In this document: positions 1,806 to 63,281 of the stretch, in pieces
How the letters are laid out: the number at the start of each line of letters is the position of its first letter
Numbering within the stretch: the stretch's first letter is position 1
Source: Candidatus Latescibacterota bacterium
GTDB taxonomy: Bacteria > Latescibacterota > UBA2968 > UBA8231
Length of the DNA: 64,000 bases
Direction: 5' to 3'
NCBI GenBank assembly: GCA_965203175.1
Contig: OZ241867.1
Location: forward strand, 1,312,001 to 1,376,000
Program-made: the position numbers and the translations under genes
The notes under the pieces: model-generated
Seen by the model: the letters and a program-made list of their open reading frames with translations, nothing else
Told to the model about the DNA's origin: nothing
Databases searched by the model: none

Positions 1806-2714
1806 CTATTTGGAGAAACTCGCCTTAATGCGGCCCCAGGTGTCGTCCTCGACCGCTGTGGCGTCGGACACCCAGTTGTTTGCGTCAAAACCAAGTAGCA
1901 CGTAGTCTACCAGGGAATCGGCGTGGAAGTACATGTTGATGTCGCCAGTGGAAACCCAGTAGCCGTTGTACGAATCGCCTGGGCCATTGTCATCGTCCTG
2001 AATGGCCATGCCGATGCCCATGACCTGGCCTTCCTCCAGGTTATGGGTAATCAGGTCGGGATCGTCGGGACCGGTCGAACTGGCGGGCAGGTCGTCGAAG
2101 GTGGTGAACCAACTCTCCTGAAAGAGAGTGGCGGGTCCACCGGCCTCGCCCTCGACGTTCCATCTGATGCCGGCGTAAGGCTCTACAGAGGCCCATACTC
2201 CGCCGCCCCATAACCACAGGTTGTTGTCCGGGTTATTGAGCGACTGCTGCCAGTCCTGCGCGGTGGCCCCGGCCCATCGCTCCGGATCCAGGCCTTCAAT
2301 GTCTCCTTGGAACTGCCCGCCGCTGTGGTCGGCATCGATCACGAGCTCGAGTTTGTCGTTGGTGGCGTCGAGGGTGCCGTACCAGAGGTCGTCGAACCTT
2401 TCCTCCATGACGTACACAAAGTTGGTCTCTGGGCTCCAGCCGACGATGATGCGCTCGGCAAGATTGCCTGGATCCGGGTCACCCTGGGTGCCCGTGACGA
2501 CCTCGATTAGGTCATCTTGGGTTACCCAGAAGACAGACGGTACGTTGTCCCAATCGCCGAGATCACCGTCTACCACGACGTCCCTGATTCCATCGACGTC
2601 GATGGGCACCTGTACCGCCGCCCAGTTCCGGTCTGTCCGCTGGTGGGCCGAACTCGGAGTGAAGGAAGCGAGAACGAGGCCCAAAACGGTAGCTATAACA
2701 ATAATCCTCTTCAC
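1806..2714 (-). CDS. Secreted protein with CBM9/DOMON-like sugar-binding domain and WGxIK C-terminal tail
   Basis: Signal peptide MKRIIVIATVLGLVLASFTPSSA, VDGDLGDW and DKLELVIDAD motifs typical of CBM9-like folds, ends ATAVEDDTWGRIKASFSK. Confidence 0.7.
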   Translation of the reverse strand: MKRIIVIATVLGLVLASFTPSSAHQRTDRNWAAVQVPIDVDGIRDVVVDGDLGDWDNVPSVFWVTQDDLIEVVTGTQGDPDPGNLAERIIVGWSPETNFVYVMEERFDDLWYGTLDATNDKLELVIDADHSGGQFQGDIEGLDPERWAGATAQDWQQSLNNPDNNLWLWGGGVWASVEPYAGIRWNVEGEAGGPATLFQESWFTTFDDLPASSTGPDDPDLITHNLEEGQVMGIGMAIQDDDNGPGDSYNGYWVSTGDINMYFHADSLVDYVLLGFDANNWVSDATAVEDDTWGRIKASFSK

Positions 2715-3266
2715 TGTTGCTTCTCCTTTTGTCTATAGAATGATGACTACTACTACATTTGCGTTGATTCTGAAATGCGGGCTTTCCCTCAACACCTCCT
2801 TTCAGCGCACCATTCGCTCAGCGAGCGAGAGCAAACGGGAACTGGTGATTTTGCGCAAACCCGGTTCTAACTGAAAAGCGATTTGACTTTAATATGGGAA
2901 ATTATGCCCGGAAATCCAAGGAAAACTTCCAGCATGTTGATGCCCCAACTTCGAGACCGACCTGACGGGTGATGTCCTTAAAGCGTCCCCGCCCCTCGTT
3001 GCCGTAGAGCGCGTTGCTACGAGGCATTATAAGCACTAGCGAGGGTATTCATTTAACCGGACCTATGGTATCTTATGTAGGAGCGCAGAACATGAGACGG
3101 CGAATGCTCCATCTGGCATTGCTGGCGTGGGCTTCGTCGAGGGTGTGGTGGTCAAGGGGCACACTATCAGGGACATCACGGTCGATCTATCCGGCGACAC
3201 GGCGGTGGAGGACGAAGCCCAGTCGCTGCTGCCTCCTCACTTGGGTAGTTCTTTCTTAAGGCGTAG

Positions 3267-4700
3267 ATGATGCAAACACAAACGGGGCGAGTCGTTAAGT
3301 GGTCTAGAAAAACCACCATATTCATTGAAATCCTTTTGGTTCTTATCCCCTTTCTGCTGTTTATAGGACTAGAGATCTATTTGCGGCATAATAATTACGG
3401 CCTTGATGACAGGCTATTTATCCCTCAAAGCTCTTCTCTTACTTACCAACTTAATCAGGAGTTGTACCGAAAATATTATTCAATTAACAATCCAATGCTT
3501 AAACAGCTAATTCCCAAGATAAGCATGAAACAGCAGAAATCCGAAAAGGATTTTCGCATCGTTTGTCTTGGGGGATCAACGACAAGAGGGCCGTTTCCCA
3601 AGCTACTTCACGAATTATTAAAACGTTCCAACGCGGATAAAACGGTAGAAGTGGTTAACCTAGGAATAGATACCTTTAATAGTTATCAGGTTCTCGACTT
3701 CGCGAAAAAACTGCCTCAGTACGATCCCGACCTTTTGATCATTTACATGGGACATAACGAAATTTATGGACCACTTGGTGTTGCATCGAATGTGGCATTG
3801 GGCACGTCTCGCGAAGTAATCAATCTGATTTTGCGATTACGCGAAATTAAGGTATTCCAGCTAGCAAACAACTTTTACGCAAAATTAAGAGCACGTCCTA
3901 ATGGATTTGAAAAGGAAGGATCGCCATATAAGATGATGGTAAACAGTTCTCTTGCCCCGCATCATCCTCTACGGGAGCAAGCCATTGAGAATTTCAGGGG
4001 AAATCTCCACGAGATTATCTCTATTGCAAATCGCCATCAAGTCCCTGTGATTTTAGGGACTATCGTTTCCAATCTTCGAGATTGGCACCCCTTTGATTCA
4101 GAACCGCCGCCAGCGTCCCTCGATGTTACCCAATGGCAACAGTTATTAAAGAATGGCAAGGCTGCGTTTGAACAAAATCATCTGGAAGAGGCGGAACGCA
4201 TCTACCAAGCAGCAATTGAACTTTTCCCAGATCACGCCCAAACTCATTTTGATCTAGGTCATGTTTACCTTGCCCAAGGACATCAAGATAAAGCCAAACG
4301 ATCCTTCACAGGAGCAAGAGACTTGGATATCTTACCGATCAGAGCCCCATCAGAGGTAAACGAAACCATAAAAAGTGTTGCCAAGGAAACAGACATCATA
4401 TTAGCAGACCTTGAAATCGTATTTCAAGATTACGATCCCAAGAGTGTGATTGGCAAACCAATGATTGTTGAACACCTGCATCCTTCAAATGAAGGATATT
4501 ATTTAATCGCAAGCCACCTAGCCAACGTCATTTTTAAAGAAGGGTTTTTGACGGCGAGTAAAAGATTGGATTTTGATGATCCATCGTTAAAAAGGGAATT
4601 GGATATAGGGGCGCTAGATGAAGGGGCCCTTGTTCGACTCAGACATATGTTGAAGATATGGCCATTTAATATCAACAATGAAGGTTATCAATATCCTTGA
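3267..4700 (+). CDS. Membrane-anchored SGNH/GDSL-like hydrolase with TPR insert
   Basis: N-terminal TM helix, RIVCLGGSTT (block I), YMGHNE (block III), EHLHP (block V), TPR pair around AERIYQAAIELFPDHAQTHFDLGHVY. Visibly more AT-rich than its neighbours. Confidence 0.75.
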   Translation: MMQTQTGRVVKWSRKTTIFIEILLVLIPFLLFIGLEIYLRHNNYGLDDRLFIPQSSSLTYQLNQELYRKYYSINNPMLKQLIPKISMKQQKSEKDFRIVCLGGSTTRGPFPKLLHELLKRSNADKTVEVVNLGIDTFNSYQVLDFAKKLPQYDPDLLIIYMGHNEIYGPLGVASNVALGTSREVINLILRLREIKVFQLANNFYAKLRARPNGFEKEGSPYKMMVNSSLAPHHPLREQAIENFRGNLHEIISIANRHQVPVILGTIVSNLRDWHPFDSEPPPASLDVTQWQQLLKNGKAAFEQNHLEEAERIYQAAIELFPDHAQTHFDLGHVYLAQGHQDKAKRSFTGARDLDILPIRAPSEVNETIKSVAKETDIILADLEIVFQDYDPKSVIGKPMIVEHLHPSNEGYYLIASHLANVIFKEGFLTASKRLDFDDPSLKRELDIGALDEGALVRLRHMLKIWPFNINNEGYQYP

Positions 4701-45400: not shown

Positions 45401-45580
45401 GCGCCGCCGGTTGAAGCCAAATTCAAAGACGAGAAACAGCAAATCGTGGAGGCGCTCCAAGTCTCCGAGGGGAGGATCTATGGAGAGCGGGGCGCGGCGC
45501 GGTTGTTGGGCATGAACCCGGAGCGACTGCGTTCCCGCATGCGCGTGTTCGGGTTGCAACGACCGAAAAAAAGGTCTTAA
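42431..45580 (+). CDS. Sigma54-dependent activator with N-terminal Reg_prop beta-propeller repeats and Y_Y_Y domain (copy 1)
   Basis: Repeated D..G.LWIGT..G blades, Y_Y_Y segment (YSHRL...Y..VPVG.FRFEVR..D), Walker A GETGVGK, ESELFGHERGAFTGA, FLDEIG, WPGNVREL, C-terminal HTH. Confidence 0.92.
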   Translation: MNDASGAARSPRQRSPFDHILGHQYTVFDGLAGMQVEDIYQDQRGLLWIATADGGVSRFDGAHFDTFGLSDGLPSLTVMSIAEDQDGRLLFGTLGGGIAAYDGHGFQVYTTEHGLPSNDIMSLQPQADGSMRVLTDAGIGWFVEGRCVECVTEIAGQPLGWVYDMVTDTTGTTWLATQQRGTISLDGRRMSAKNGAMQWPWKFAQDASGPLWIAFRYVGTEVVIGRYDSDSQQLDLIKADAAIEGTEAVNHGTRHVRLDDKGRLWMARQGVLVYDGADWHSFSAGLPDVHFSEARLTYEDREGNIWVGLWGGGLVFCDPVSVQLYTGADGLPDREVHQLREDHQGRIWIGTMGGLACLEDGRIRSVETGHKVSALAIDCQGQVWHGSPEGKVIKGVGKDAQVIEVTKDNCYDYEEVKLYPDQEGGIKVGTSEGRLGRIEDDRFIAEEQGPANCRVVLQDSEGTLWIGSYGATPALYYYKDGHFHASDMAGIETVAYVSTLCDYEGTLWVGTANGLFAFDYRAQQVRRFTADQGDLSVNSILALVADSHQGCLWIGTSGGGVMKYDGRVFQSIRLGKSTLENIVEAILRDSRGRLWFGTRAGLIAYQPGNTPPGIVIRQVMAGRLLEMPQAVSCPDSTPEIQFHFQGLSFRSGAEQMRYSHRLVSHSPAEEWSAFTSSNRVSYNGVPVGQFRFEVRVLDRDGLMSEVASLDVQVFPDEKSVRLQRLEHMLQDADQDFLSQSQAMTQFLGEVAQMAETDMTMLVMGETGVGKGVLAQRIHNLSRRRGQPFIELNCGSLPAGLIESELFGHERGAFTGAVKRHIGCFERANYGTLFLDEIGDLPLEAQRALLRILENRYLTRVGGEQSIPVDVRVIAATNKDLKEAIEVGTFREDLFYRLSAWPVKLPPLRERREDIPLLAAHFARRYAQNLQRPVPALGDGVVKHLQAYAWPGNVRELEHLIRRAVVLCRGEVIQVEDVPLAAEDEAKEGPFAPPVEAKFKDEKQQIVEALQVSEGRIYGERGAARLLGMNPERLRSRMRVFGLQRPKKRS

Positions 45581-49141: not shown

Positions 49142-49428
49142 CAAAGGCAGCAGTTCGGACCAGAAGTCCCGATAGGAGCGTAATGGTACCATACGAAGAC
49201 TTCACTTGGGCACCCAACAGCACGAGGATGGCCTTCACTTCTTTTACCACTAGCGACGGCTTTAGGGAGATATGGGCCGTTGATATAGACGGGAGCCACT
49301 TGGTCAATCTGACCAACGGCTTAGGTGGACACTCTCCCGCTTGGCAATCGGTGCTCCCTACTGCCACGAGCGTCGAGGCCCAGTCGTGGGGACGGATCAA
49401 ATCGCTGCTTTCAACGGGTATCCGTTAA
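49141..49428 (+). pseudogene. 3' fragment of a TolB-like array paralog
   Basis: Only the last blade and tail remain (TWAPNS.RMAF...EIWAVDIDGSHLVNLTNGLGGHSPAWQ...TSVEAQSWGRIK). No signal peptide. Confidence 0.8.
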
Positions 49429-49582: not shown

Positions 49583-50107
49583 ATGAAAACGCGAGTTGTG
49601 CATCAAGCTCGTCTCGTGTTAATCGCCTGTTTGATAGCTTTTGGCCTGTTGGGTATTAGCCATGCCCAAAAAAATGGACATCCGCCTTGGGTCTGGAGTG
49701 TAGCGTATTCGCCAGATGGAGGCACGCTGGCTAGCGGGGGTACCGACGAGACGATACGCCTTTGGGATGTGGCGACGGGAGAAATTCTTGCCACGCTGAG
49801 CGGGCATACGGACTGGGCCTGCGGTGTCGCCTATTCACCGAATGGCCGTACGCTGGCTAGTGGGGGCGGCGACAACAAGGTTCGTCTTTGGGATGTGGCG
49901 ACAGGAGGCCTCCTCGCCACGCTGAGCGGGCATACAAAAGCGATCACTAGCGTGGCGTATGCACCGGCTGGGGGCACGTTGGCTAGCGGGGGGTACGACA
50001 ACAATGGGGTGCGTTTCTGGGACATCGCGTCTTATATCGGCGGGGAGCCGACAGCCGTGGCCGAGACCTCATGGGGTCAGGTCAAAGTGCTGCTTTCAGT
50101 CCCGTGA
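49583..50107 (+). CDS. Secreted WD40-repeat protein (3 repeats) with WGxIK tail
   Basis: SD AAAGGAG, signal ...ISHA|Q, VAYSPDG.TLASGG.D.TIRLWD repeats, ends EPTAVAETSWGQVK. Confidence 0.85.
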   Translation: MKTRVVHQARLVLIACLIAFGLLGISHAQKNGHPPWVWSVAYSPDGGTLASGGTDETIRLWDVATGEILATLSGHTDWACGVAYSPNGRTLASGGGDNKVRLWDVATGGLLATLSGHTKAITSVAYAPAGGTLASGGYDNNGVRFWDIASYIGGEPTAVAETSWGQVKVLLSVP

Positions 50108-50158: not shown

Positions 50159-51022
50159 ATGAACTATCGATCTCTACTGATCGCCTGCTTGGCAACGCTG
50201 GGGCTGGCCGTCGCTGGCTGGGGGCAAGCCGACGGTAAAATCGCATTTGTCTCCGACCGCGAGGGACATGGTGACGTGTGGATTATGAATGCGGATGGGA
50301 GCGATCCCGTAAATCTAACCCAAGGACGGGATTGCGCTGGCCCGGCTTGGTCGCCAGATGGCACGCAGATCGCCTATATTGCCGGCGGCGAAATCTGGTT
50401 GATGAATGCCGACGGCAGTAATCCGCAACAGGTGACAGACGATCCCGTCGATAAAGCGCGGCTTTTTTGGTCTGAAGACGGGAGTAGCATTTACTATGTC
50501 GCCGTCGTGGCTTTGCCGATTCCAGAGGAGTGGGACGGCCCTGATGCGTTTGTTACGGCGCTGGACGGCAGTGGCGCGTCGCCTGTGGACTGGAGAGAGG
50601 TATATCGCCGCTTCCTCCCTGGTGTTTCTCCAGACGGAACCCTACTAGCAACCGTCTCGTTGTGGGACGGAGGGGGCCATAAGCATGTCAATTTCTACAT
50701 CCGCACCAGTGCCAGTGATCACATGCATCCGGGTCTTCTCCTACCTGAATCACTCCAGAATAAACTGATATACACCGAACCCTACGAAAATTGGCGAACA
50801 TTCCCTACTTGGTCGCCCGACGGACTGAGAATAGCCTTCTCTGGTTTTCTCGATTTCATGGGTCAGTTTGAGATTTGGGCCGCTGATACAGACATGGACA
50901 ACTGGGTCGAGTTGACCAACGGCTTAGGTGGACACTCTCCCGCTTGGCAACCGGCGATCCCTGCTGCTACGGGCGTCGAAGCCCAGTCGTGGGGACAGGT
51001 CAAATCGCTGCTTTCTCATTAA
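50159..51022 (+). CDS. Secreted TolB/PD40-like beta-propeller protein, array member
   Basis: MNYRSLLIACLATLGLAVAGWG|Q, KIAF.SDREG, PAWSPDG, tail TGVEAQSWGQVK. Confidence 0.88.
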   Translation: MNYRSLLIACLATLGLAVAGWGQADGKIAFVSDREGHGDVWIMNADGSDPVNLTQGRDCAGPAWSPDGTQIAYIAGGEIWLMNADGSNPQQVTDDPVDKARLFWSEDGSSIYYVAVVALPIPEEWDGPDAFVTALDGSGASPVDWREVYRRFLPGVSPDGTLLATVSLWDGGGHKHVNFYIRTSASDHMHPGLLLPESLQNKLIYTEPYENWRTFPTWSPDGLRIAFSGFLDFMGQFEIWAADTDMDNWVELTNGLGGHSPAWQPAIPAATGVEAQSWGQVKSLLSH

Positions 51023-51130: not shown

Positions 51131-51306
51131 TTCGAAAAGATCGTAGGCGGCCAACACGGAAAGCCGTGGACAACCTTGCGCTGACGGCTGAAGCTGCACA
51201 TCGTAAAAAGAATCATCTCATATTTTGAATGTTATGTTTTTCAATCCTTTAGGGTGCCCCTAAAGGATTTTTTGTCGGCGGTTGTATCTTAGGGGTGGGT
51301 CATGTG
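51131..51306 (+). promoter_or_regulatory. Second copy of the regulatory cassette, with a degenerate sigma54 core
   Basis: CACGGAAAGCCGTG at 51155, hairpin AATCCTTTAGGG/CCCTAAAGGATT, expected promoter position reads AGGGGTGGGTCATGTG. Confidence 0.6.
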
Positions 51307-51344
51307 TTAAAGGCCGGGACCTCCCAATCGTCGGAAGGACGAAT

Positions 51345-54300
51345 ATGAGCGACATATCCTTTGAGCACGTGTTGAGCAGTCAGTACACCATCTTTGATGG
51401 GCTGGCTGGGATGCACGTGGAAGACATCTACCAAGATAGCCGCGGGTTGTTGTGGATATCCACTGTCGATGGGGGCGTCAGTCGGTTCGACAGCGCCCGT
51501 TTCGAGACCTTGGGCCTTAAAGACGGCCTGCCCAATCTCTCGGTTATGACCATTGCCGAGGACGCGGATGGACGGATGCTGTTCGGCACGTTCGGCGGGG
51601 GGCTTGCCGTGTACGACGGGCGCGATTTTCAGGTGTACACCACGGAGCACGGCCTGCCTTCCAACGAGATTTTTAACCTGCAACCGCAGCCGGATGGCTC
51701 GATTCTAGTGCTGACCAGTGAGGGTGTGGGGTGGGTTGCTCAAGGCCACTGCATAAAGTCCATAACCCATATTGACGGCCAACCGCTGGGGCGGGTGTAC
51801 GATATGGTCACCGACGCGGGTGGCATCACTTGGTTGGCGACATGGGGCCAAGGTGTCCTCAGTTTGGATGGGCGGCGCATGGATACTGGAGGTCGGCAGG
51901 TCCAATACTCTTGGAAACTCGCCCAAGACCCCTCCGGCTATTTATGGATCGCCTTCCAATATACGGGAACCGAAGCCTTGATTGGCCGTTACGATCCGCG
52001 GAATGAACAGCTTGCATTCATCAATGTGGGCAATGAGACTGAGGGGGCCGTGCAGCAGGGGACGCGGCACATCCGCAGCGACGAGCGAGGCTGGCTCTGG
52101 CTGTCTCGTCGGGGCGTACTTTGCTACAATGGGCAGGAGTGGCACTCTTTTTCCGCCTCCCTGCCGGATATTGACTTTTCGGATACACGTCTGACCTACG
52201 AGGACCGCGAGGGCAATATCTGGATAGGACTCTGGGGAGGTGGGGTAATTTTTTGCGATCCGGCCAGCATCCGGCGCTACATCGAAGCCGACGGCCTACC
52301 CGACCGCGAGATTCGCTGCTTGGGCGAAGATCGCGAAGGACGGGTGTGGATTGGGACGATGGGGGGCATGGCCTGCATGGAAGAGGGCCAAATCCGCCCG
52401 GTCAAGACAGGGGAAATTGTCTCGGCGATGGTAATAGATGGCCAGGGCCAGGTCTGGAGTGGCGGGAATGCAGGCAAGGTGTATAAGTGTGAGGGCCAAA
52501 CGCTACAAGCGATCTCCGTGTCCGAAGAGACCCATCCCGAAGAAATCGTCGGGCTATGCGAAGATGAGCAAGGGCGTATCTGGGTCGGCACGTTCGATGG
52601 CCGCTTCGGCTGGATAGAAGAGGACCAAATCACCTGCCTCACCGATATGTCGCTCTATGAAGGCCGAGCTATGCTACACGACCAAGATGGAGTACTCTGG
52701 ATCGGTTCATACGGAGTAATACCGGCACTCTGGTGTTATGAAGGTGGGCACTTGCACCCGGCGGATATGGCCGAGTCCGAGTCCATCGCCTATGTCAACG
52801 TCTTGTGGGAGCATCAAAACACGCTGTGGGTCGGCACGGCCAAGGGGCTTTTCGCCCTTGATCTCTCGTCGCGGGAGGCGCGTCGGTTTACTGCCGAGCA
52901 GTTTGGGCTGTCGGCCAATAGCATTTTGGCGTTGACAGCCGACTCACACGGCAACATCTGGATCGGCACCAGCGGCGGCGGCGTCCTCCGCTACGACGGT
53001 CAGACCTTCCAGAGCATTCGCTTGGGGCCATCCGCTCTTGAAAACAAGGTCGAAGCCGTCCTGTGCGACCATCGCGGTCGGCTGTGGTTTGGCACGCGGG
53101 CGGGACTGGTTGCCTACCAGCCGGGACACACGCCGCCGCGCTTGGTCATCCGCGAGGTCATGGCCGGTACCCTATTGGCCGCCCCCGAAGCCGTATCCTG
53201 TCCAGAGAGTACCCCTGAGATCCGCATTCACTTCCAAGGTATCAGCTTCCGAACCGGCGCGGGACAAATGCGCTATAGCCACCGGCTGTTAGGGCACGAT
53301 CCGACGGAACAATGGAGTGCGTTTACGGCTGCTAATGCGGTCGCGTATAGTACCCTGCCAGTGGGCGAGTATCGCTTTGAGGTGCGGACGATGGACCGCG
53401 ATGGCCTGATCTCTGAGGTCGCCAGCTTAGAGATTCAGATCCTCCCCGACGCCAAAACCGAACGCATCCATGCCCTTGAAAACGTACTGCGAGCTACCGA
53501 CCACGTCGTACACAGTCAGAGTTGGGCGATGCGCCAAGTGATGGAGCAGACCGTGCGCGTCGCTGAGACGGCGATGACCGTGCTGGTGCTAGGCGAGACT
53601 GGCACGGGCAAGGGCTTACTCGCGCAGACCATCCATGAAACAAGCACCCGCCGCGAGCGGCCCTTCATCCGCGTCAATTGCGGAGCGCTGCCGGCTGGGT
53701 TGGTTGAAAGCGAACTGTTCGGCCACGAGAAGGGGGCCTTTACTGGGGCGGCGAGCCGTCAGCTCGGCCGCTTTGAGCTGGCCGATGGCGGTACGCTCTT
53801 CTTGGACGAAATCGGCGATTTGCCGTTGGAATCTCAGCGGGTGCTGCTGCACATCTTAGAGGAGAAGGCGCTGACTCGGGTTGGCGGCCAACAGCCTGTA
53901 AGCGTGGACGTACGGGTCATTGCGGCGACCAATCGCGATCTGCGGCAGGCGATCCAAGAGGGTACGTTCCGCGAAGACCTATTCTACCGGCTGAGCGTAT
54001 TTACCTTAGAGCTTCCACCACTGCGGCAGCGGCAAGAGGATATACCGGCTCTGGCGGTGCATTTTGCGAAGCAGTATGCCCAACATCTGCAGCGGCCGGT
54101 GCCGACGCTAGATGAGGGAGTGGTCGCGCACTTGCAGGGGTATGCTTGGCCGGGGAATGTGCGCGAGTTGGAGCACCTGATCAATCGGGCGGTTTTGCTG
54201 TGCGAGGGTGGGGTGATACGCGCTGGAGACTTGCCGCTGCTGTCGGCTGCACGGCGCAGGGATGCGGTGCTGTCCGCGACAGCAGATGGCGAAGGCTTGG

Positions 54301-54461
54301 ACGAAAAGCAGCAGCTTGTGGAGGCGTTGCAAGCGACTAACTGGATTATCTATGGCGAGCGGGGTGCGGCGCGCTTGTTGGGCATGAATCCGGAACGGCT
54401 GCGCTCCCGCATGCGCTACTATGGACTGCGACGACCGAAAAAACCCGGTACGGGCAAGTAG
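51345..54461 (+). CDS. Sigma54-dependent activator with Reg_prop beta-propeller repeats and Y_Y_Y domain (copy 2)
   Basis: Colinear paralog of 42431..45580. GETGTGK, GAFTGA, and a near-identical HTH (GAARLLGMNPERLRSRMR). Start trimmed to MSDISF. Confidence 0.92.
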   Translation: MSDISFEHVLSSQYTIFDGLAGMHVEDIYQDSRGLLWISTVDGGVSRFDSARFETLGLKDGLPNLSVMTIAEDADGRMLFGTFGGGLAVYDGRDFQVYTTEHGLPSNEIFNLQPQPDGSILVLTSEGVGWVAQGHCIKSITHIDGQPLGRVYDMVTDAGGITWLATWGQGVLSLDGRRMDTGGRQVQYSWKLAQDPSGYLWIAFQYTGTEALIGRYDPRNEQLAFINVGNETEGAVQQGTRHIRSDERGWLWLSRRGVLCYNGQEWHSFSASLPDIDFSDTRLTYEDREGNIWIGLWGGGVIFCDPASIRRYIEADGLPDREIRCLGEDREGRVWIGTMGGMACMEEGQIRPVKTGEIVSAMVIDGQGQVWSGGNAGKVYKCEGQTLQAISVSEETHPEEIVGLCEDEQGRIWVGTFDGRFGWIEEDQITCLTDMSLYEGRAMLHDQDGVLWIGSYGVIPALWCYEGGHLHPADMAESESIAYVNVLWEHQNTLWVGTAKGLFALDLSSREARRFTAEQFGLSANSILALTADSHGNIWIGTSGGGVLRYDGQTFQSIRLGPSALENKVEAVLCDHRGRLWFGTRAGLVAYQPGHTPPRLVIREVMAGTLLAAPEAVSCPESTPEIRIHFQGISFRTGAGQMRYSHRLLGHDPTEQWSAFTAANAVAYSTLPVGEYRFEVRTMDRDGLISEVASLEIQILPDAKTERIHALENVLRATDHVVHSQSWAMRQVMEQTVRVAETAMTVLVLGETGTGKGLLAQTIHETSTRRERPFIRVNCGALPAGLVESELFGHEKGAFTGAASRQLGRFELADGGTLFLDEIGDLPLESQRVLLHILEEKALTRVGGQQPVSVDVRVIAATNRDLRQAIQEGTFREDLFYRLSVFTLELPPLRQRQEDIPALAVHFAKQYAQHLQRPVPTLDEGVVAHLQGYAWPGNVRELEHLINRAVLLCEGGVIRAGDLPLLSAARRRDAVLSATADGEGLDEKQQLVEALQATNWIIYGERGAARLLGMNPERLRSRMRYYGLRRPKKPGTGK

Positions 54462-54735: not shown

Positions 54736-55629
54736 ATGAACTATCGGTCGATACTGATCGTCTGCTTGGCAACGCTGGGACTGGCCGTCGCCGGCTGGGG
54801 GCAAGCCGACGGTAAAATTGCGTTTATCTCCGACCGCGAGGAACACGATGACGTGTGGATTATGAATGCGGACGGGAGCAATTCCGTAAACCTGACCAAA
54901 GGACGGGATTGTGCTAGCCCGGCTTGGTCCCCGGATGGCACGAAGATCGCCTATATCGGCGACGTTTTTGATGATGATCAGTACGGTGGGGAGATTTGGT
55001 TGATGGATGCCGATGGCGGCAATCCACAGCAGCTAACAGAAGATAGAGTAATTCTTTGGTTGGCTTCAGCCGATAAAGAGAGTCTTTCGTGGTCTGAAGA
55101 CGGGAGTAGCATCTACTACACTACGGTGCGTTCGGAGGACGGCGGCTTCAGCGTAGAGTTCGATAATTTCGTCGTAGGGCTAGACGGAAGTGAGCCCATA
55201 TACGTAGATTCAGAGTTCCCCGATTTCGCTATTCTTCATCCGGTTTCTCCGGACGGCACCAAAAGAGCTCACGTCGTGTTAAACGATGAAGACGGTCAGG
55301 CTCGCCTCTATATCGTCGACTTGGTCGAGTACGAGCAAATAGCCATTGATCTGACGGATCTACCCAACGTCGACGTTACAGGCGTAAACCTAGTGACTTC
55401 TTCTACTTGGTCGCCCAACGGCATGAGAATCGCCTTCGAGTTTTACCCCGATTTTTTCAGCCAGCATGAAATCTGGGCGGTTGATATAGACGGGAGCGAC
55501 TTGGTCGAATTGACCAACGGCTTGGGTGGACGCGATCCCGCTTGGCAACCCGTTGTCCCTTCTGCTACTGCCACGAGCGTCGAAGCCCAGTCGTGGGGAC
55601 GGATCAAATCGCTGCTTTCAGTTCCATGA
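54736..55629 (+). CDS. Secreted TolB/PD40-like beta-propeller protein, array member
   Basis: Conserved signal and N-terminal blades, tail TSVEAQSWGRIK. Confidence 0.88.
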   Translation: MNYRSILIVCLATLGLAVAGWGQADGKIAFISDREEHDDVWIMNADGSNSVNLTKGRDCASPAWSPDGTKIAYIGDVFDDDQYGGEIWLMDADGGNPQQLTEDRVILWLASADKESLSWSEDGSSIYYTTVRSEDGGFSVEFDNFVVGLDGSEPIYVDSEFPDFAILHPVSPDGTKRAHVVLNDEDGQARLYIVDLVEYEQIAIDLTDLPNVDVTGVNLVTSSTWSPNGMRIAFEFYPDFFSQHEIWAVDIDGSDLVELTNGLGGRDPAWQPVVPSATATSVEAQSWGRIKSLLSVP

Positions 55630-55678: not shown

Positions 55679-55777
55679 ATGAACTATCGGTCTCTACTAA
55701 TCGCCTGCTTGGCAACGCTGGGTCTAGCTGTTGAATGTTGCTTTTCACTCACCATCCAGAAAGGATGTGAACTATGA
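55679..55777 (+). pseudogene. 5' stub of an array paralog (signal peptide only)
   Basis: Full conserved RBS region and MNYRSLLIACLATLGLAV, then homology stops abruptly near 55732. Confidence 0.8.
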
Positions 55778-56526
55778 CACATATTATTGCAGTCTCGTGC
55801 GCCCTCGCTTTGTGGGCCTTGCCCGCCGCTGCTCAAAACGACTGGCTGGGCACTTGGGAAGCTCACGTCGATCAAGTCGAGCACTACGTCTTCTACGACA
55901 AAAACGGTCGTGAGGTCACACAAGCGAAGTACGACAAGCTCATCCCTAGCTTTCAGGGGTCCATCGACACCCTGCGCATCAACGACGCGGACTGGATCAT
56001 CATCCACATGACCTTCAACGTCGATGGCACCTTTCAAATCCGCGAAGAGTTCCTCGCGAATGATGGCGACCTGTTCGCCAGCTTAGATGAAATGCTAGCC
56101 GCAAAGCTGGAACTCGACTCAATCAACGCCTTTCCTGCGGTAGCCACCATGACCTACGAGACAACCGGCACCTATGGCATCGATGGCGATACCATGTCGT
56201 GGGAAGCCGACGAACAGACTCTGTACGCAGGTGACACAGAGGCCAACGCATTCTTCGCCGCAGTCGCCTCGCAGCTAGCCGAGCAGTCAGAGCTTCCCGG
56301 AGACATAGGCCCCGACTTTGTAGAGGAATTTGGCGACAACTTGGGCAGAGTGCAGACGACGTCTGGCTCGTATGTTTACCAAGTTGAGGACGGCAGCCTC
56401 TTTCTCTCGCGCAACGGCAACTCCCTCTTGCAAGCGAGTTGGTTGAGTTCCATAGTACTGTCCCGCGTCGCCGACGACACGGCCGTGACCCCTACTAGTT
56501 GGGGCAGCCTGAAAGCAAGCAACTAA
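55774..56526 (+). CDS. Unrelated secreted acidic protein with WGxLK tail
   Basis: Signal ...LPAAA|QND, no PD40 motifs, ends DDTAVTPTSWGSLKASN. Confidence 0.8.
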   Translation: MTHIIAVSCALALWALPAAAQNDWLGTWEAHVDQVEHYVFYDKNGREVTQAKYDKLIPSFQGSIDTLRINDADWIIIHMTFNVDGTFQIREEFLANDGDLFASLDEMLAAKLELDSINAFPAVATMTYETTGTYGIDGDTMSWEADEQTLYAGDTEANAFFAAVASQLAEQSELPGDIGPDFVEEFGDNLGRVQTTSGSYVYQVEDGSLFLSRNGNSLLQASWLSSIVLSRVADDTAVTPTSWGSLKASN

Positions 56527-56713: not shown

Positions 56714-57625
56714 ATGAACTATCGATCTCTACTGATCGTCTGCTTGGCAACGCTGGGACTAGCCGTCGCTGGCTGGGGGCAAGCAGATGGTAAAATCGCA
56801 TTTATCTCCGACCGCGAGGGGCACTCTGACGTGTGGATTATGAATGCCGATGGGAGCGACCCCGTGAATTTGACCCAAGGACGGGATTGCGCTAGTCCGG
56901 TTTGGTCCCCGGATGGCACACAGATCGCCTATATTGCCAGCGGCGAAATCTGGTTGATGGGTGCCGATGGCAGCAATTCGCAACAGGTGACAGATGATGC
57001 CGTCGATAAAGCGCGGCTTTGGTGGTCTGAAGACGGGAGTAGCATTTACTATGTCGCCGTCATGACCGAGCCGCTGCCAGACGAGTGGGCTCCTGATGCG
57101 TTCGTTGCGGCGCTGGACGGCAGTGGCCCGTCGCCTGCGGACTGGAGAGAGGTATATGACCGCTTCCTCCCTGGTCTTTCCCCAGACAGAACCATAGCAG
57201 CATGGCTCACGTTGATAGAGCACGAGGATGCAGAGGGCCTTATCTATGCTTACTTCAACTTTTACAGTTACGGTGATCCCGATGATCACAGGCACCCAGG
57301 TCTTCTCCTGCCTGAATTGCGCCAGAATAAAGATATATACGGCGAACCCTACGATCATTGGCGGACTTTTCCTACTTGGTCGCCCAACGGCATAAGCATC
57401 GCCTTCGCTGGTTTTCTCGATGTCATTGGCCAGTTCGATATTTGGGCTGCTGATGTAGCAGAAGCAGATGAGAAAGGAAGGATCAAATTGACTGACTTGA
57501 CTAGCTTGACTAATGGTTTAGGTGGACGTGAGCCCGCTTGGCAACCGGTTCTCCCTTCTGCTACTGCCACGAGCGTCGAGGCCCAGTCGTGGGGACGGAT
57601 CAAATCGCTGCTTTCAGTACCATAG
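56714..57625 (+). CDS. Secreted TolB/PD40-like beta-propeller protein, array member
   Basis: Same architecture, closest to 50159 and 59959. Confidence 0.88.
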   Translation: MNYRSLLIVCLATLGLAVAGWGQADGKIAFISDREGHSDVWIMNADGSDPVNLTQGRDCASPVWSPDGTQIAYIASGEIWLMGADGSNSQQVTDDAVDKARLWWSEDGSSIYYVAVMTEPLPDEWAPDAFVAALDGSGPSPADWREVYDRFLPGLSPDRTIAAWLTLIEHEDAEGLIYAYFNFYSYGDPDDHRHPGLLLPELRQNKDIYGEPYDHWRTFPTWSPNGISIAFAGFLDVIGQFDIWAADVAEADEKGRIKLTDLTSLTNGLGGREPAWQPVLPSATATSVEAQSWGRIKSLLSVP

Positions 57626-57677: not shown

Positions 57678-58643
57678 ATGAACTATCGATCTCTACTAAT
57701 CGCCTGCTTGGCAACGCTGGGGCTGGCCGTCGCTGGCTGGGGGCAAGCCGACGGCAAAATCGCATTTACCTCGTGGCGCGAGGGGTCCGGGGACGTGTGG
57801 ATTATGAATGCGGATGGAAGCGACCCCGTAAACTTAACCCAAGGTCGGCATGGGCATTGCGTTGACTTGGTTTGGTCTCCAGATGGCACGAAGATCGCCT
57901 ATCTCGCCTTTAGTGACGATCCCGAGCCCGATTCTGATGGTGCCATTTGGGTCGATTATTCCGTTGCCGATATATGGGTGATGGACGCCGATGGTGGCAA
58001 CTCGCAACAAGTGGGATCTCTAACTCCCGGAAATGAAGTACTTTTTTGGGCTGAAGACGGAAGTAGCGTTTACTACTACCTGCGGGACCCCCAACAGCTA
58101 TTCGCTGTGGCGCTGGACGGCAGTGGTTTCTCACCTATATCTCGGACGGACGGGACTGGAATAGTCCGCCGGTTCTTCGATAATTCCAATCTTTCTCCAG
58201 ACGGAACCAAGCGGGCAACCGTCGTGTTGCAGGACGACGAGGGCAATGCCTATCTACGCCTAGCTGGCTACACCCCTATACGCCTAGCTGGCCTAGCTGG
58301 CTACGCCCCTACTGAGGGGCCGCAGCCTTCTGACCAGATAGAAGATTTCAGGGAGATTCCCCTTCCCGATCTACCCTATCAACAAGCTGAACTTGAACCC
58401 GGCTGGTATAGAGTGGCTCACTCTACTTGGTCGCCTGACAGCATGAGAATCGCCTTCTATGCCGCTAACGAGAAAGGGTACAGGGAGGTTTGGGTTGTTG
58501 GTATAGACGGGAGCAACTTGGTTAATCTGACCGACGGTTTGGGCGGAGATTATCCCGCTTGGCAACCCGTCGTCCTTTCTGCTGCCGCCACGAGCGTCGA
58601 AGCTCAGTCGTGGGGACGGATCAAAGCGCTGCTTTCTCATTAA
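57678..58643 (+). CDS. Secreted TolB/PD40-like beta-propeller protein, array member
   Basis: Start trimmed to MNYRSLL, tail TSVEAQSWGRIK. Confidence 0.88.
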   Translation: MNYRSLLIACLATLGLAVAGWGQADGKIAFTSWREGSGDVWIMNADGSDPVNLTQGRHGHCVDLVWSPDGTKIAYLAFSDDPEPDSDGAIWVDYSVADIWVMDADGGNSQQVGSLTPGNEVLFWAEDGSSVYYYLRDPQQLFAVALDGSGFSPISRTDGTGIVRRFFDNSNLSPDGTKRATVVLQDDEGNAYLRLAGYTPIRLAGLAGYAPTEGPQPSDQIEDFREIPLPDLPYQQAELEPGWYRVAHSTWSPDSMRIAFYAANEKGYREVWVVGIDGSNLVNLTDGLGGDYPAWQPVVLSAAATSVEAQSWGRIKALLSH

Positions 58644-58766: not shown

Positions 58767-59801
58767 ATGAACTATCGGTCTCTACTGATCGTCTGCTTGG
58801 CAACGCTGGGGCTGGCCGTCACTGGCTGGGGGCAAATCGACGGTAAGGATGTTGACAATCCGGCCGGTCCGTCGTTGTCGGCGGGGACGAGCAGTAATGA
58901 GGAGGCTTGGGTCGTCGGGGCCATACGCCGCCTGACCGATCACTCGGCCAATTACAGGTCTCCGTCTTGGTCTCCGGATGGCCAGCATATCGTCTTCGAT
59001 TCCAACCGCCGCGGCAAGGCGGATATTTACGTAATGGGTGCGGATGGGAGCAACCCCCGCCGCCTGACCGACCACCCAGATTGGGCCGCGTATCCCTCTT
59101 GGTCTCCGGATGGCCAGCACATTGCCTTCATATCCGAGCACGACAGCAGCGATGTAGGTTCGGATATTTACGTGATAGGTGCGGATGGGAGCAACCGCCG
59201 CAACCTGACCAACGACTCGGAGTGGCACTATTCTCCGTCTTGGTCTCCCGATGGCCGGCACATCGCCTTCGTGACCGTGGCCGGGCACTACGGAGAGTCT
59301 AATATTTACGTAATGGATTTGGATGGGAGCGGCCCCCGCCGCCTGATAGCCCACCCAGGGCCGATCCGGTCTCCGTCTTGGTCGCCGGATGGCCAATACA
59401 TCGCCTTCGATTCCGACCGCGACGGCAACATTTACGTAATGGGTTCGGATAGGAGCTACCGCCGCCGCCTGACCGACCACCCGGCCGACGATAGGTCTCC
59501 GTCTTGGTCTCCGGATGGCCGGCACATCGCCTTCGAGTCCAATCGCGACGGCGACTGGGAGATCTACGTGATGGATTCGGATGGGAGCAATCCCCGCCGC
59601 CTGACCGACCACCCGGCCGACGATAGGTCTCCGTCTTGGTCTCCGGATGGCCGGCACATCGCCTTCGAGTCCAATCGCGACGGCAACTGGGAGATCTACG
59701 TGATGGACATCGCGTCTCATATCGGCGGGGAGCCGACGGCTGTGGCCGAGACCTCGTGGGGACGGATCAAGAGGCATTTGCAAGATCATGCCGGCAACTA
59801 A
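58767..59801 (+). CDS. Secreted PD40-repeat protein (6 regular repeats) with WGxIK tail
   Basis: Six PSWSPDG.HI.F repeats, array-type signal peptide, tail GGEPTAVAETSWGRIK. Confidence 0.9.
   Translation: MNYRSLLIVCLATLGLAVTGWGQIDGKDVDNPAGPSLSAGTSSNEEAWVVGAIRRLTDHSANYRSPSWSPDGQHIVFDSNRRGKADIYVMGADGSNPRRLTDHPDWAAYPSWSPDGQHIAFISEHDSSDVGSDIYVIGADGSNRRNLTNDSEWHYSPSWSPDGRHIAFVTVAGHYGESNIYVMDLDGSGPRRLIAHPGPIRSPSWSPDGQYIAFDSDRDGNIYVMGSDRSYRRRLTDHPADDRSPSWSPDGRHIAFESNRDGDWEIYVMDSDGSNPRRLTDHPADDRSPSWSPDGRHIAFESNRDGNWEIYVMDIASHIGGEPTAVAETSWGRIKRHLQDHAGN
59462..59707 (+). repeat. Near-identical 132-bp-period intragenic tandem duplication (one propeller blade)
   Basis: 59462-59575 and 59594-59707 differ at one visible position (GGCGAC/GGCAAC). 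Confidence 0.85.
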
Positions 59802-59958: not shown

Positions 59959-60924
59959 ATGAACTATCGAGCCATATTTGTCGTCTGCTTGGCAACGCTG
60001 GGACTAGCTGTCGCAGGCTGGGGGCAAGCCGACGGTAAAATCGCATTTATCTCCGACCGCGAGGGGTACTCTGACGTGTGGATTATGAATGCGGATGGGA
60101 GCGACCCCGTAAACCTGACCCAAGGACGGGATTGCGCTAGCCCGGCTTGGTCTCCAGATGGCACGAAGATCGCCTATATTGCCAGCGGCGAAATCTGGTT
60201 GATGGACGCCGCCGGCAGCAATCCGCAACAGGTGACAGACGATGCCGTCGATAAAGCGCGGCTTTTTTGGTCTGAAGACGGGAGTAGCATTTACTATGTC
60301 GCCGTCCCGACTTGGCCGCTTCCGGACGAGTGGGCCCCTGATGCGTTCCTTGCGGAGTTGGATGGCAGTGGCTCGTCGCCCGTGGACTGGAGAGAAGTAT
60401 ACAGCCGCTTCCTCCCTGGTGTTTCCCCTGACGGAAGCCAACTAGCAACTGTCACGTTGTGGGATGGAGAGGGGGGCCATAGGCATGGTCCCCGTGTTCT
60501 CCGGCCGGGCGAGCCCGGCACTGTCCGGCCAGGCGAGCCCTACACAGCAAAGCACAGGCGCTACGAAGCGGGCCGTGTCCATGCTCTCTTCTACATCGGC
60601 ACCAGTGCCTTTGATCACATGCACTCAGGTGATCTCCTGCCTGAATCGCTGCAGAATAAACTGATATATACCGAACCCTACGAAGAGTGGCGAACCTACC
60701 CTACTTGGTCGCCCGACGGCCTGAGAATAGCCTTCGCTAGTTTTCTCGATTTCATGGGTCAGTTTGAGATTTGGGCTGCTGATACAGACGGGGACAACTG
60801 GGTCGAGTTGACCAACGGCTTGGGAGGACATGAGCCCGCTTGGCAACCTGTCGTCCCTTCTGCTACTGCCACGAGAGTAGAGTCTCAGCCGTGGGGACAG
60901 ATCAAAGCGCTGCTTTCTCATTAA
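59959..60924 (+). CDS. Secreted TolB/PD40-like beta-propeller protein, array member
   Basis: Close paralog of 50159 with an inserted loop, tail TRVESQPWGQIK. Confidence 0.88.
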   Translation: MNYRAIFVVCLATLGLAVAGWGQADGKIAFISDREGYSDVWIMNADGSDPVNLTQGRDCASPAWSPDGTKIAYIASGEIWLMDAAGSNPQQVTDDAVDKARLFWSEDGSSIYYVAVPTWPLPDEWAPDAFLAELDGSGSSPVDWREVYSRFLPGVSPDGSQLATVTLWDGEGGHRHGPRVLRPGEPGTVRPGEPYTAKHRRYEAGRVHALFYIGTSAFDHMHSGDLLPESLQNKLIYTEPYEEWRTYPTWSPDGLRIAFASFLDFMGQFEIWAADTDGDNWVELTNGLGGHEPAWQPVVPSATATRVESQPWGQIKALLSH

Positions 60925-61256: not shown

Positions 61257-62291
61257 ATGAACAATCGGTCTCTACTGATCGCCTGCTTGGCAACGCTGGG
61301 GCTGGCCGTCGCTGGCTGGGGGCAAGCCGACGGTAAGGATGTTGACAATCCGGCCGATCCGTCGCTGTCGGCGGGGATTGGGCAAGCGGTGACGAGCAGT
61401 GGTGGGGAGGCTTGGGTCGTCGGAGCCATACGCCGCCTGACTGACTATTCGGCCAGCTACAGCTCTCCGTCTTGGTCCCCGGATGGTCAGCACATCGCCT
61501 TTGGGTTCGAGCGCGACGGCCGGGCTAAGATTTACGTGATAGGTTCGGATGGGAGCGACTTCCGCCGCTTGACCGACCACCCGGCTTGGGCCGCGCTTCC
61601 CACTTGGTCCCCGGATGGTCAGCACATCGCCTTCGTGTCTGAGCGCGGCGTCAGCGATATTTACGTGATAAGTTCGGATGGGAGCGACCGCCGCAATCTG
61701 ACCAACGATTCGCATTGGGACTGGTCTCCGTCTTGGTCTCCAGATGGTCGGCACATCGCCTTCGTGTCCGGGCGCGGTAGCTACGGCAAGGCTGAGATTT
61801 ACGTGATAGATTCGGATGGGAGCAACTCTCGCCGCCTGACCGACCACCCGGAGCAGGTCGATTCTCCCACTTGGTCCCCGGATGGTCAGCACATCGCCTT
61901 CGTGTCCGAGCGCGGCGGCAGGGCTGGGATTTACGTGATGGGATCGGATGGGAGCAACCCTCGCCGCCTGACGGACCCCTCGGCCGACTACAAGTCTCCG
62001 TCTTGGTCTCCAGACGGCCAGTACATCGCCTTTGAGTCCGAGTGGTACGACAGGGTTGGGATTTACGTGATGGATTCGGATGGGAGCAACCCCCGCCGCT
62101 TGACGGACCCCTCGGCCGACTACAGGTCTCCGTCTTGGTCTCCGGATGGTCGGTACATCGCCTTCGAGTCCAACCGCGACGGCGACTGGGGGATTTACGT
62201 GATGGACATCGCGTCTTATACCGGTGGGGAGCCGACGGCTGTGGCCGAGACCTCGTGGGGACGGATCAAATCGTTGCTTTCAACCCCATGA
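61257..62291 (+). CDS. Secreted PD40-repeat protein (6 regular repeats) with WGxIK tail
   Basis: Paralog of 58767, tail GGEPTAVAETSWGRIKSLLSTP. Confidence 0.9.
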   Translation: MNNRSLLIACLATLGLAVAGWGQADGKDVDNPADPSLSAGIGQAVTSSGGEAWVVGAIRRLTDYSASYSSPSWSPDGQHIAFGFERDGRAKIYVIGSDGSDFRRLTDHPAWAALPTWSPDGQHIAFVSERGVSDIYVISSDGSDRRNLTNDSHWDWSPSWSPDGRHIAFVSGRGSYGKAEIYVIDSDGSNSRRLTDHPEQVDSPTWSPDGQHIAFVSERGGRAGIYVMGSDGSNPRRLTDPSADYKSPSWSPDGQYIAFESEWYDRVGIYVMDSDGSNPRRLTDPSADYRSPSWSPDGRYIAFESNRDGDWGIYVMDIASYTGGEPTAVAETSWGRIKSLLSTP

Positions 62292-62336
62292 CATACATCT
62301 AATCTTCTCATTCATCCTTCTGAAAGGAGCCACGTT

Positions 62337-63281
62337 ATGAACTATCGGTCTCTACTGATTGTCTGTTTGGCAACGCTAGGGCTAGCCATCGCTGGCTGGG
62401 GGCAAGCAGATGGTAAAATAGCGTTTATCTCCGACCGCGAGGGGCACAAGGACGTTTGGATTATGAATGCGGATGGGAGCGACCCCGTGAGCCTAACCCA
62501 AGGGCAGTATTGCGCTAGCCCGGCTTGGTCCCCGGATGGCACGAAGATCGCCTATATAGACATTGGTGCCGATCATTCTGGTAGTGATGTCTGGGTGGTA
62601 GACGCCGCCGGCGGCAATCTGCAACAACTGACAGGCAAGCCAGTGACGGAATACATAGCCAGGGGAGCTCTTTTTTGGTCTGAAGACGGAAGTAGCATTC
62701 GCTTCTACGCGTTGGGCCGCACAGACATATTCGCTGTGGCGCTGGACGGCAGTGGATCCTCACGCATGGAATGGACGGAGGGGGCTTTGGAAATCCTCCG
62801 CTTCCGAAACCACCACCATCTTTCTCCAGACGGAACCAAACGAGCCTCCGTCGCCTTGCCGCGTGATGACGTAGAAGGCCAAGCTCTCTTCATGATCTAC
62901 AATGTCGAAGACAGGCAGACCACGGTCGCCCGGGCCATTACCCTGTCCGACCAACCTAACGTCGATCTCTCTGCTCTGGATCGCGCCGCTTGGTTTTACC
63001 CTTCTTTTCCCCTTACTTGGGCACCCAACGGCACGAGGGTAGCCTTCACTTCGTACACCGTTCGCGAAAGGACTGACACTCCTTCCCCCAACGACTTTTC
63101 CTATTCCGAAGCCACTGGGGAGATTTGGGCCGTTGATATAGACGGGAGCAACTTGGTCGAGTTGACCAACGGCTTGGGTGGATATTCTCCCGCTTGGCAA
63201 CCAGTTTCCTCTTCTACTATTGCTACAAGTGTCGAAACCCAGTCGTGGGGACGGATCAAATCGCTGCTTTCAACCCCATGA
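62337..63281 (+). CDS. Secreted TolB/PD40-like beta-propeller protein, array member
   Basis: Conserved ends, variable centre, tail TSVETQSWGRIK. Confidence 0.88.
   Translation: MNYRSLLIVCLATLGLAIAGWGQADGKIAFISDREGHKDVWIMNADGSDPVSLTQGQYCASPAWSPDGTKIAYIDIGADHSGSDVWVVDAAGGNLQQLTGKPVTEYIARGALFWSEDGSSIRFYALGRTDIFAVALDGSGSSRMEWTEGALEILRFRNHHHLSPDGTKRASVALPRDDVEGQALFMIYNVEDRQTTVARAITLSDQPNVDLSALDRAAWFYPSFPLTWAPNGTRVAFTSYTVRERTDTPSPNDFSYSEATGEIWAVDIDGSNLVELTNGLGGYSPAWQPVSSSTIATSVETQSWGRIKSLLSTP

Follow-up and report, generated by a model that had tools for sequence, protein, structure and literature searches.

A conserved 16-residue C-terminal tail on exported proteins of a Latescibacterota bacterium, probably an undescribed cell-envelope address or processing tag

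A stretch of 64,000 nucleotides from a Candidatus Latescibacterota genome (hereafter the window; positions 1312001-1376000 of contig C1 of genome G000, which is 6.58 Mb in a single contig with 59% G+C) contained 13 open reading frames (ORFs) that shared a short C-terminal tail. Window ORFs of 60 amino acids (aa) or more contained the motif WG.[IVL]K 13 times, always 3-13 residues before the stop codon. Each of the 13 carriers ended in T-[ASGR]-[VI]-x-x-x-[STP]-W-G-x-[IVL]-K followed by 3-13 residues and the stop, just as a first-pass annotation of this DNA had described them. Six looser look-alikes in the window (WAWMR, WGALR, WSIIR, WGRLR, WSAVK and WAAFR) were different sequences, five of them internal or located in short junk ORFs. 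The tail had the consensus (P)-T-A-V-E-x-x-[ST]-W-G-x-[IV]-K-x-x-[FYL], which was separated from the stop by 0-10 residues. The annotation had spoken of 13 ORFs of unrelated folds. Several unrelated folds were indeed represented, but the carriers formed only five families: nine PD40 proteins in two subfamilies, one WD40 protein, one CBM9-like protein and two proteins of no family. The fold labels agreed with our own assignments (CBM9 by Foldseek, WD40 and PD40 by Pfam).

The C-terminal position of the motif extended to the whole genome. In the 72,493 stop-to-stop ORFs with a length of 50 aa or more, 92 of 108 occurrences of WG.[IVL]K lay within 15 residues of the stop, rather than being equally frequent at internal positions. 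Circularity was avoided by anchoring the search on T[AS]VE alone in ORFs of at least 120 aa. This shorter motif was found within 25 residues of the stop in 72 ORFs, compared with about 19 expected from its overall frequency; 53 of these had WGx[IVL]K in register and seven more had W-A-x-[IV]-K. In the T[AS]VE-anchored set, the Trp was present in 60 of 71 cases and the Lys in 60 of 68. The seven additional C-terminal tails, in which Ala takes the place of Gly (T[AS]VE-x2-[ST]-W-A-x-[IV]-K), bring the true number of tails in G000 to near 100. For the Thr, Gly and Lys of the tail every synonymous codon was in use and third positions varied freely, so that conservation acts on the protein and does not reflect a DNA repeat. 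Following the Lys, G000 tails had 3-13 mostly polar residues without a hydrophobic stretch, in agreement with the annotation's remark that the tail lacks a transmembrane (TM) helix. They ended variably, for example in SLLSVP or ASFSK, with K, E, Q, P, H, F or N as the last residue, whereas T-A-V-E ahead of the core was conserved to the same degree as the core itself.

The 89 carriers of at least 120 aa in G000 fell into about 23 unrelated sequence clusters. These comprised a CBM9-like family with 34 members, a PD40/WD40 cluster with 21, families of eight, four, two and two members, 17 singletons and one member of a cluster of proteins with a C-terminal domain (CTD) of the type IX secretion system (T9SS). 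Signal peptides had been reported for all complete carriers in the window, where we could see them by eye, and they were common genome-wide. By a crude rule that takes the best of up to 12 start codons, 82 of the 89 carriers had a signal peptide, compared with 199 of 600 control ORFs of 250-400 aa; under the same rule, 226 of 246 CTD proteins passed. Five of the seven carriers that failed showed a signal peptide by eye, and the remaining two were fragments. A homology search with the CBM9-like carrier of the window retrieved 128 proteins at E ≤ 0.001. Among the 120 relatives listed, 114 ended in the tail, which was kept down to 25-30% identity, and the other six were fragments or had degenerate ends; no CTD-bearing homologue was found among the 120. 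A longer, CTD-fused form of this carrier was not found at E ≤ 0.001 either (weak evidence). We conclude that the tail is under protein-level selection and that it forms a discrete peptide at the C-terminus of Sec-type exported proteins whose folds are unrelated.

The annotation had considered that the tail might be an integral strand of each fold. In both AlphaFold2 (AF2) models computed, the tail is instead placed outside the fold. The model of the CBM9-like carrier (51 sequences, mean predicted local distance difference test score (pLDDT) of 84) showed a beta-sandwich that ended at strand 269-273, followed by a low-confidence linker and a short helix at residues 293-299, with the pLDDT falling from 63 to 47. 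Its body matched the CBM9 modules 7nwn (E 2.6e-9) and 1i82 in Foldseek. The model of the last PD40 paralogue that is complete in the window (62337..63281) was based on eight sequences only and had a mean pLDDT of 71.5. Its last propeller strand was at 283-287, and residues 292-314 were drawn as helices (H305-311) with a pLDDT of about 50 or lower.

The tail did not correspond to a described family in the collections searched. Whole carriers gave no match to the tail in Pfam-A or NCBIfam 20.0, and the last 40 residues of five carriers gave no match in Pfam-A or NCBIfam at E ≤ 10. Literature searches by motif strings returned only an unrelated densovirus paper, and searches on phylum names combined with T9SS or C-terminal sorting revealed no such tail in the titles and the opening parts of the abstracts. 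About 100 exported proteins of G000 thus share a 16-residue end that, judged from sequence, is probably an undescribed address or processing tag of the cell envelope. Its C-terminal bias, its unrelated exported carriers, its position outside the fold and its conservation at the protein level are the general properties of C-terminal sorting tags. The first-pass proposal of a probable sorting signal stands as far as a selected C-terminal peptide on exported proteins is concerned; beyond the tail being exported, exposed, conserved and C-terminal, everything, sorting included, is what we infer.

The distribution of the tail was mapped with a strict back-translated DNA pattern (T-A-V-E-x3-W-G-x-[IV]-K), and the reversed pattern served as the control. 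The pattern was present in all 24 other genomes of the same genus, with 3-31 copies each, and in 83 of 168 genomes of the phylum; the reversed pattern had no match in any of the 168. By family (f1 to f14), the tail was found in 71 of 75 genomes of G000's own family (f1), two of three in f5, one of three in f6, the single genomes of f7 and f8, both genomes of f9 and four of six in f12. It was absent from f2 (31 genomes), f3 (three genomes) and f4 (22 genomes), which belong to the same class as G000, as well as from f10 (13 genomes), f14 (five genomes), f11 and f13 (one genome each). A 26-position profile (A2) was derived from sequences that this DNA pattern had picked out, which makes its TAVE, WG and K columns invariant from the outset; its first row is three residues short. 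At E < 0.01 it gave 18 matches in G049 (f9) and none in G051 (f10), G073 and G075 (f14) or G035 (f2).

In a public scan with one genome per species, 117 of the 120 matches listed had a stop within 2-12 codons, and in 91 of the 120 it came at 4-5 codons. One of the other three was internal (in a record titled Gammaproteobacteria, probably by chance), and two reached the end of the stretch or masked sequence. Typical ends among the matches listed were ...WGRIKASFSK and ...WGxIKALYR. Most of the records listed were titled Latescibacterota, where the annotation had placed similar tails; the others were titled Gemmatimonadota, Eisenbacteria, Handelsmanbacteria and, in one case, Planctomycetota. A spread over many phyla, as these titles would imply, was rejected. 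The tested Gemmatimonadota, Handelsmanbacteria and Planctomycetota records (L006, L009 and L070) are G137, G151 and G138, with identical PorU contig numbers, coordinates and scores, and therefore fall in G000's own family in the taxonomy used for the genomes. Phylum names in record titles are consequently unfit for mapping the tail. A record titled Eiseniibacteriota led to a second, separate phylum (around G168), in which the profile detected the tail in 82 of the 151 genomes sampled (E ≤ 0.001). The highest count in a single genome was 53 matches at this threshold, and G171 had 58 at E ≤ 0.01; many of the matches were confined to the [ST]WGx[IV]Kxx[YF]R half. Counts for this phylum include the unpublished genome G186, which enters no other claim and without which the tail was found in 81 of 150 genomes and PorU in 149 of 150. 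The tail is established in two phyla here.

The carriers of the window and other genes around them are listed in Table 1. The 187-aa carrier had no match in Pfam or NCBIfam and was a singleton in the genome clustering, and the homologue search with the 250-aa carrier gave two database relatives, too few to inform. The truncated PD40 remnant comes right after the gene for the 1086-aa protein. A 14th PD40 paralogue starts at 63327 and has its tail just beyond the window (genome positions 1375282-1376241). The PD40 paralogues between 50159 and 63281 had a near-invariant signal peptide (MNYRSLLIVCLATLGLAVAGWGQADGK) while their bodies were only 41-62% identical, an indication of gene conversion or of strong constraint at both ends of these genes. 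Two sigma-54 activators with Reg_prop/Y_Y_Y sensor propellers flank the start of the PD40 array, which may be under sigma-54 control. The window also contained two adjacent sulfatase genes, PhyH dioxygenases and GFO/IDH/MocA oxidoreductases, and these genes suggest a lifestyle of sulfated-glycan degradation.

Table 1. Tail carriers and other features of the window (positions in the window; CTD, C-terminal domain; T9SS, type IX secretion system).
Feature	Position	Strand	Tail and its position	Evidence or remark
CBM9-like exported protein, 302 aa, GTG start	1806..2714	-	TAVEDDTWGRIKASFSK at 1806-1859	AF2 and Foldseek
Two adjacent sulfatase genes	25123..28076
DUF362 protein with FlgD-Ig/T9SS-type CTD	30193..32424	-		PTAVEE before CTD; Pfam FlgD_ig 2.7e-8, TIGR04183 1.1e-4
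Exported protein, 187 aa, no family	32436..32999	-	TAIEKLSWGKIK plus 13 residues at 32436-32513
Sigma-54 activator	42431..45580
Exported protein, 1086 aa, CHU_C-like (T9SS type-B-like) CTD	45881..49141	+		Pfam CHU_C 8.3e-6, below gathering score; beside tail-gene array
PD40 paralogue remnant, 5'-truncated	49099..49428	+	intact, TSVEAQSWGRIKSLLSTGIR at 49366-49428	Without start codon or signal peptide
WD40-repeat exported protein	49583..50107	+	TAVAETSWGQVKVLLSVP at 50051-50107	Pfam WD40 E 2.3e-32
PD40 paralogue	50159..51022	+	TGVEAQSWGQVKSLLSH at 50969-51022	Pfam PD40
Sigma-54 activator	51282..54461
PD40 paralogue	54736..55629	+	TSVEAQSWGRIKSLLSVP at 55573-55629
Exported protein, 250 aa, no family	55774..56526	+	TAVTPTSWGSLKASN at 56479-56526	4 paralogues in genome
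PD40 paralogue	56714..57625	+	57569-57625
PD40 paralogue	57678..58643	+	58590-58643
PD40 paralogue, TolB-like, 6 repeats	58767..59801	+	TAVAETSWGRIKRHLQDHAGN at 59736-59801	Pfam PD40 E 3.2e-72
PD40 paralogue	59959..60924	+	TRVESQPWGQIKALLSH at 60871-60924
PD40 paralogue, TolB-like	61257..62291	+	62235-62291
PD40 paralogue	62337..63281	+	TSVETQSWGRIKSLLSTP at 63225-63281	Pfam PD40, AF2 model

The CBM9-like family, the largest among the carriers, had two invariant His residues in its 34 members, one (H24) directly after the predicted signal-peptidase site (...SSA/H) and the other at H130. Foldseek also matched the CBM9-like carrier to haem-binding subunits of ethylbenzene dehydrogenase and nitrite oxidoreductase. 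The family may hold a metal- or cofactor-binding site rather than be a plain carbohydrate module. Its tail genes stood in repeated cassettes (window positions 1-9663; loci L138 and L139, C1:93500-128500), together with two CTD proteins, one of them with an F5/8 type C domain, a protein of about 900 aa of no family, a DUF6785/DUF6784 membrane protein, a PpiC-type rotamase and ATP-binding cassette (ABC) transporter genes. DUF6785-type proteins were found at 16 of 64 tail loci. In a second CBM9-like subfamily, a PKD domain (Pfam PKD_4, E about 1e-14) formed the C-terminus and the tail was lacking. This was the only form found in the tail-less family f10 (loci L144-L156; G051 and G054), and it also occurred three times in G000 (C1:1287886-1288146, 4693770-4694024 and 5377449-5377712). 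The idea that PKD replaced the tail in f10 was dropped because G000 itself has these three proteins; the PKD-ended form is a separate subfamily and not a swap.

G000 encoded components of the T9SS, namely PorU (632 bits, above the cut-off), SprA (618 bits), and a PorV homologue directly after porU that was itself followed by an M6-like protein; PorQ-like and PorV2-like barrels were encoded as well. A hidden Markov model (HMM) built from 55 motif-defined CTDs found 246 ORFs ending in a CTD of the FlgD-Ig type. PorU was matched at E ≤ 1e-30 in all 83 tail-positive genomes of the phylum. Families f2-f4 (56 genomes), which had no tail, had only a partial, sub-threshold PorU-like match or none, and few CTD candidates. 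The partial match covered PorU positions 5-737 and lay in a frame of about 1,900 aa. NCBIfam holds two models, NF052324 and NF052325, for 'PorU2/PorV2', a putative second T9SS-type sorting system, and f2-f4 may use a system of this type. In the second phylum, PorU was matched in 81 of 82 tail-positive genomes and in 150 of 151 of all those sampled.

A second link to the T9SS lies in the junction ahead of the tail. The first-pass annotation had pointed out the same TAVE linker in front of the FlgD/T9SS-like CTD of the DUF362 protein in the window, and this held for the genome: T[ASG][VI], often as PTAVE, stood 17-20 residues ahead of NYPNPF in 32 of 55 CTDs of G000, where fewer than one would be expected by chance. 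The WD40 tail protein at 49583 and its closest relative in the genome, a WD40 protein with a CTD, diverged right after a common S-Y-I-x-x-P-T-A-[VI]. Tail genes were also found near CTD genes, 48 of the 89 lying within 5 kb of one compared with 22.1 ± 4.1 in 1000 random placements (maximum 35), a figure that is inflated by arrays and by one large family. The further suggestion that the two tags are interchangeable was borne out only weakly. The junction is common to both, but none of the 89 tail carriers in G000 also had a CTD, the two sets of families were distinct, and cross-hits between them were confined to WD40 repeats. Tail carriers had a median length of 317 aa and CTD carriers one of 737 aa; four of 89 tail carriers were longer than 450 aa, and four of 246 CTD carriers were shorter.

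Since the tail is found only where PorU is, has the TAV(E) junction in common with CTDs and is encoded by genes that cluster with CTD genes, we tentatively favour the reading that it is a minimal tag for sorting or processing, connected with the T9SS, linear and unfolded, on Sec-exported soluble proteins; we regard this as plausible but short of likely. The signal peptide would carry the protein across the inner membrane, and the tail, according to the models, would hang from the folded domain by a flexible linker. A putative T9SS-associated envelope component would recognise T-A-V-E ... W-G-x-[IV]-K-x-x-[FYL], and the protein would be delivered to or kept at the cell surface. A PorU-type sortase would probably cut the tail at or near the TAVE junction that it has in common with T9SS CTDs. 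The tail would then add a third, minimal kind to the cargo signals linked to the T9SS, and in G000 it would serve mainly small single-domain proteins of about 300 aa. The more specific proposal that the 16-residue TAVExx[ST]WGx[IV]Kxx[FY] takes the place of a folded CTD as a third signal class, is read via TAVE and is removed by PorU appears to us possible, though rather unlikely.

Several findings weigh against a link to the T9SS. PorU is not sufficient, because f10 (13 genomes) and f14 (five genomes) have full-length PorU and CTDs yet no tail (by the DNA pattern, and by the profile in G051, G073 and G075); the tail-less G051 and G073 had 122 and 110 FlgD-type CTD matches. The second phylum gives no contrast, since PorU is nearly universal there, and the contrast with f2-f4 may reflect a single evolutionary event. 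A division of labour in which small proteins take the tail and large ones the CTD was true in G000 but was rejected as a general rule, as it fails in the tail-positive G049. CTD frames shorter than 450 aa, counted by hand in the listed rows only, numbered two of 107 in G000 and 15 of 43 in G049, and in the tail-negative genomes 17 of 59 (G051) and 20 of 91 (G073). The TAV junction is not tied to the tail either, since it was present ahead of CTDs in the tail-negative G051 (three of seven; none of seven in G073, with 14 CTDs readable from 30 loci). In a solved substrate-bound translocon, the folded CTD buries about 1,850 Å2 on SprA and the loops of PorV (PMC10994853), which a 16-residue peptide cannot reproduce.

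The search for a reader pointed in the same direction. The annotation had expected a cognate gene of the PorV, PorU or SprA type, and among PorU and the two further candidates examined, none was found whose distribution follows the tail. Of the 168 genomes of the phylum, 167 had the PorV2-like barrel and 161 had the M6-like protein that is encoded in the porU operon; being near-universal, neither explains the patchy occurrence of the tail. The genus has one PorU, and PorU2 (NF052324) was not found in G000. When the PorV homologue (residues 24-349) was modelled together with the C-terminal 32 residues of the CBM9-like carrier, the predicted complex scored 0.01 against a mark of 0.32; the prediction was run without controls and is evidence for neither side.

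A role independent of the T9SS would be that of an anchor, with W-G-x-I-K-x-x-F forming a short amphipathic helix in a membrane or lipopolysaccharide (LPS) interface and so holding soluble periplasmic or surface proteins in place. The C-terminal helices of PBP5/6 and the membrane-targeting sequence of MinD would be parallels. AF2 drew a short helix in two unrelated carriers (H293-299 and H305-311), although with low confidence (pLDDT 44-63), and the hydrophobic spacing of such a helix (W at i, I/V at i+3, F/Y/L at i+7, with K/R flanks) is visible in the tails. The lack of a dedicated reader among the two candidates checked (PorV2-like and M6-like) and the location of many carriers in cassettes with ABC-transporter and DUF6785 membrane proteins are also consistent with an anchor. 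However, in-plane anchors usually keep their amphipathicity and not their sequence, whereas T, A/S, V, E, W, G and K of the tail are near-invariant in two phyla. The helix-unfriendly Gly and the acidic TAVE would be needless for a lipid anchor, and ten residues are short for one. We consider this explanation unlikely.

The proximity of tail genes to CTD genes, and the repeated cassettes that combine CBM9-like tail genes with two CTD proteins and the protein of about 900 aa, would also fit a docking peptide. The tail would then add a strand or helix to a putative common partner, which could be a CTD, another T9SS cargo domain or a surface scaffold, and lead to co-export or to complexes at the surface. 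The T9SS moves folded proteins, which is compatible with such co-export. About 40 of the 89 tail genes nevertheless stood more than 5 kb from any CTD gene, and the adjacency signal comes mostly from arrays and a single family of 34 members. On balance, we find docking improbable.

Still less would we expect the tail to be a proteolytic control tag, read for maturation or turnover by a periplasmic C-terminal-processing or PDZ protease of the Prc, CtpA or DegP type. The tail is C-terminal and, in the models, exposed and flexible, many genomes end it uniformly with x-x-[FY]-[RKQ] and the stop, 4-5 residues past the Lys (91 of the 120 matches listed), and a gene for a DegP/HtrA-type protease lies near one PorQ gene. 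In G000, however, the residues after the Lys and their number (3-13) vary while TAVE..WGxIK upstream is kept, so that the free C-terminus that PDZ domains would read is not conserved. Proteases of this type are moreover near-universal, and the tail is patchy.

The invariant Lys, which is the most conserved position after Trp in the T[AS]VE-anchored set (60 of 68), might be cross-linked to peptidoglycan or another envelope polymer in the manner of the C-terminal Lys in Braun's lipoprotein, but it is not terminal, no transpeptidase is linked to it and nothing further supports such a covalent tether, which we judge very improbable. Sharing of the tail by mere paralogy or a DNA-level repeat at gene ends, suggested by nine of the 13 window carriers being PD40 paralogues with near-identical signal peptides and tails, is refuted by the roughly 23 unrelated clusters in the genome, the freely varying third codon positions, the empty reversed-pattern control in 168 genomes and the retention of the tail at 25-30% protein identity.

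Should the tail prove to be an address tag, an unannotated localisation signal would be carried by about 1.5-2% of genes in such genomes (about 100 in G000 and up to 58 profile matches in another genome), and predictions of the secretome and surface proteome would be systematically wrong for bacteria of the Latescibacterota and Eisenbacteria types. A tag linked to the T9SS, as we tentatively favour, would offer a direct route into cargo recognition by T9SS-type machinery, and if it represents a third signal class, a short peptide can direct T9SS-type surface sorting in several uncultured phyla of the Fibrobacteres-Chlorobi-Bacteroidetes (FCB) group. For display or secretion, a 16-residue tag that brings folded proteins to the envelope or surface of diderms would be a compact tool as well. 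The sharpness of the motif allows immediate annotation by HMM and simple fusion and mutation tests.

Among known C-terminal signals, those of the PEP-CTERM/exosortase, LPXTG/sortase, GlyGly-CTERM/rhombosortase and MYXO-CTERM systems resemble the tail in being short signatures that many unrelated exported proteins carry at their very C-terminus and in being restricted to certain lineages. Their layout is a signature motif followed by a TM helix and a basic cluster. The tail differs in having no TM helix, in the 3-13 mostly polar residues after its Lys and in giving no match to the sorting-signal models of NCBIfam. The beta-signal of outer-membrane proteins (OMPs), a C-terminal aromatic residue read by the BAM complex, resembles the tail in its shortness, its C-terminal position and the aromatic residue close to the terminus; ...S-x-F or ...Y-R is the ending of many tails. 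Unlike OMPs, the carriers are soluble CBM9-like, PD40 and WD40 folds and not barrels, the terminal residue varies in G000, and the register G-x-[IV]-K-x-x-[FY] presumably does not fit the beta-signal. The type A CTD of the T9SS (TIGR04183/PF18962; here the FlgD_ig-like PF13860) is a 70-100-aa Ig-like sandwich, whereas the tail has about 16-25 unfolded residues that match no model and form no domain in AF2, and it is absent from families that use CTDs heavily. Like that CTD, the tail occupies the C-terminus of Sec-exported proteins of unrelated folds, occurs only in PorU-bearing lineages among those searched, is preceded by a (P)TAV(E) junction and is encoded by genes interleaved with CTD genes.

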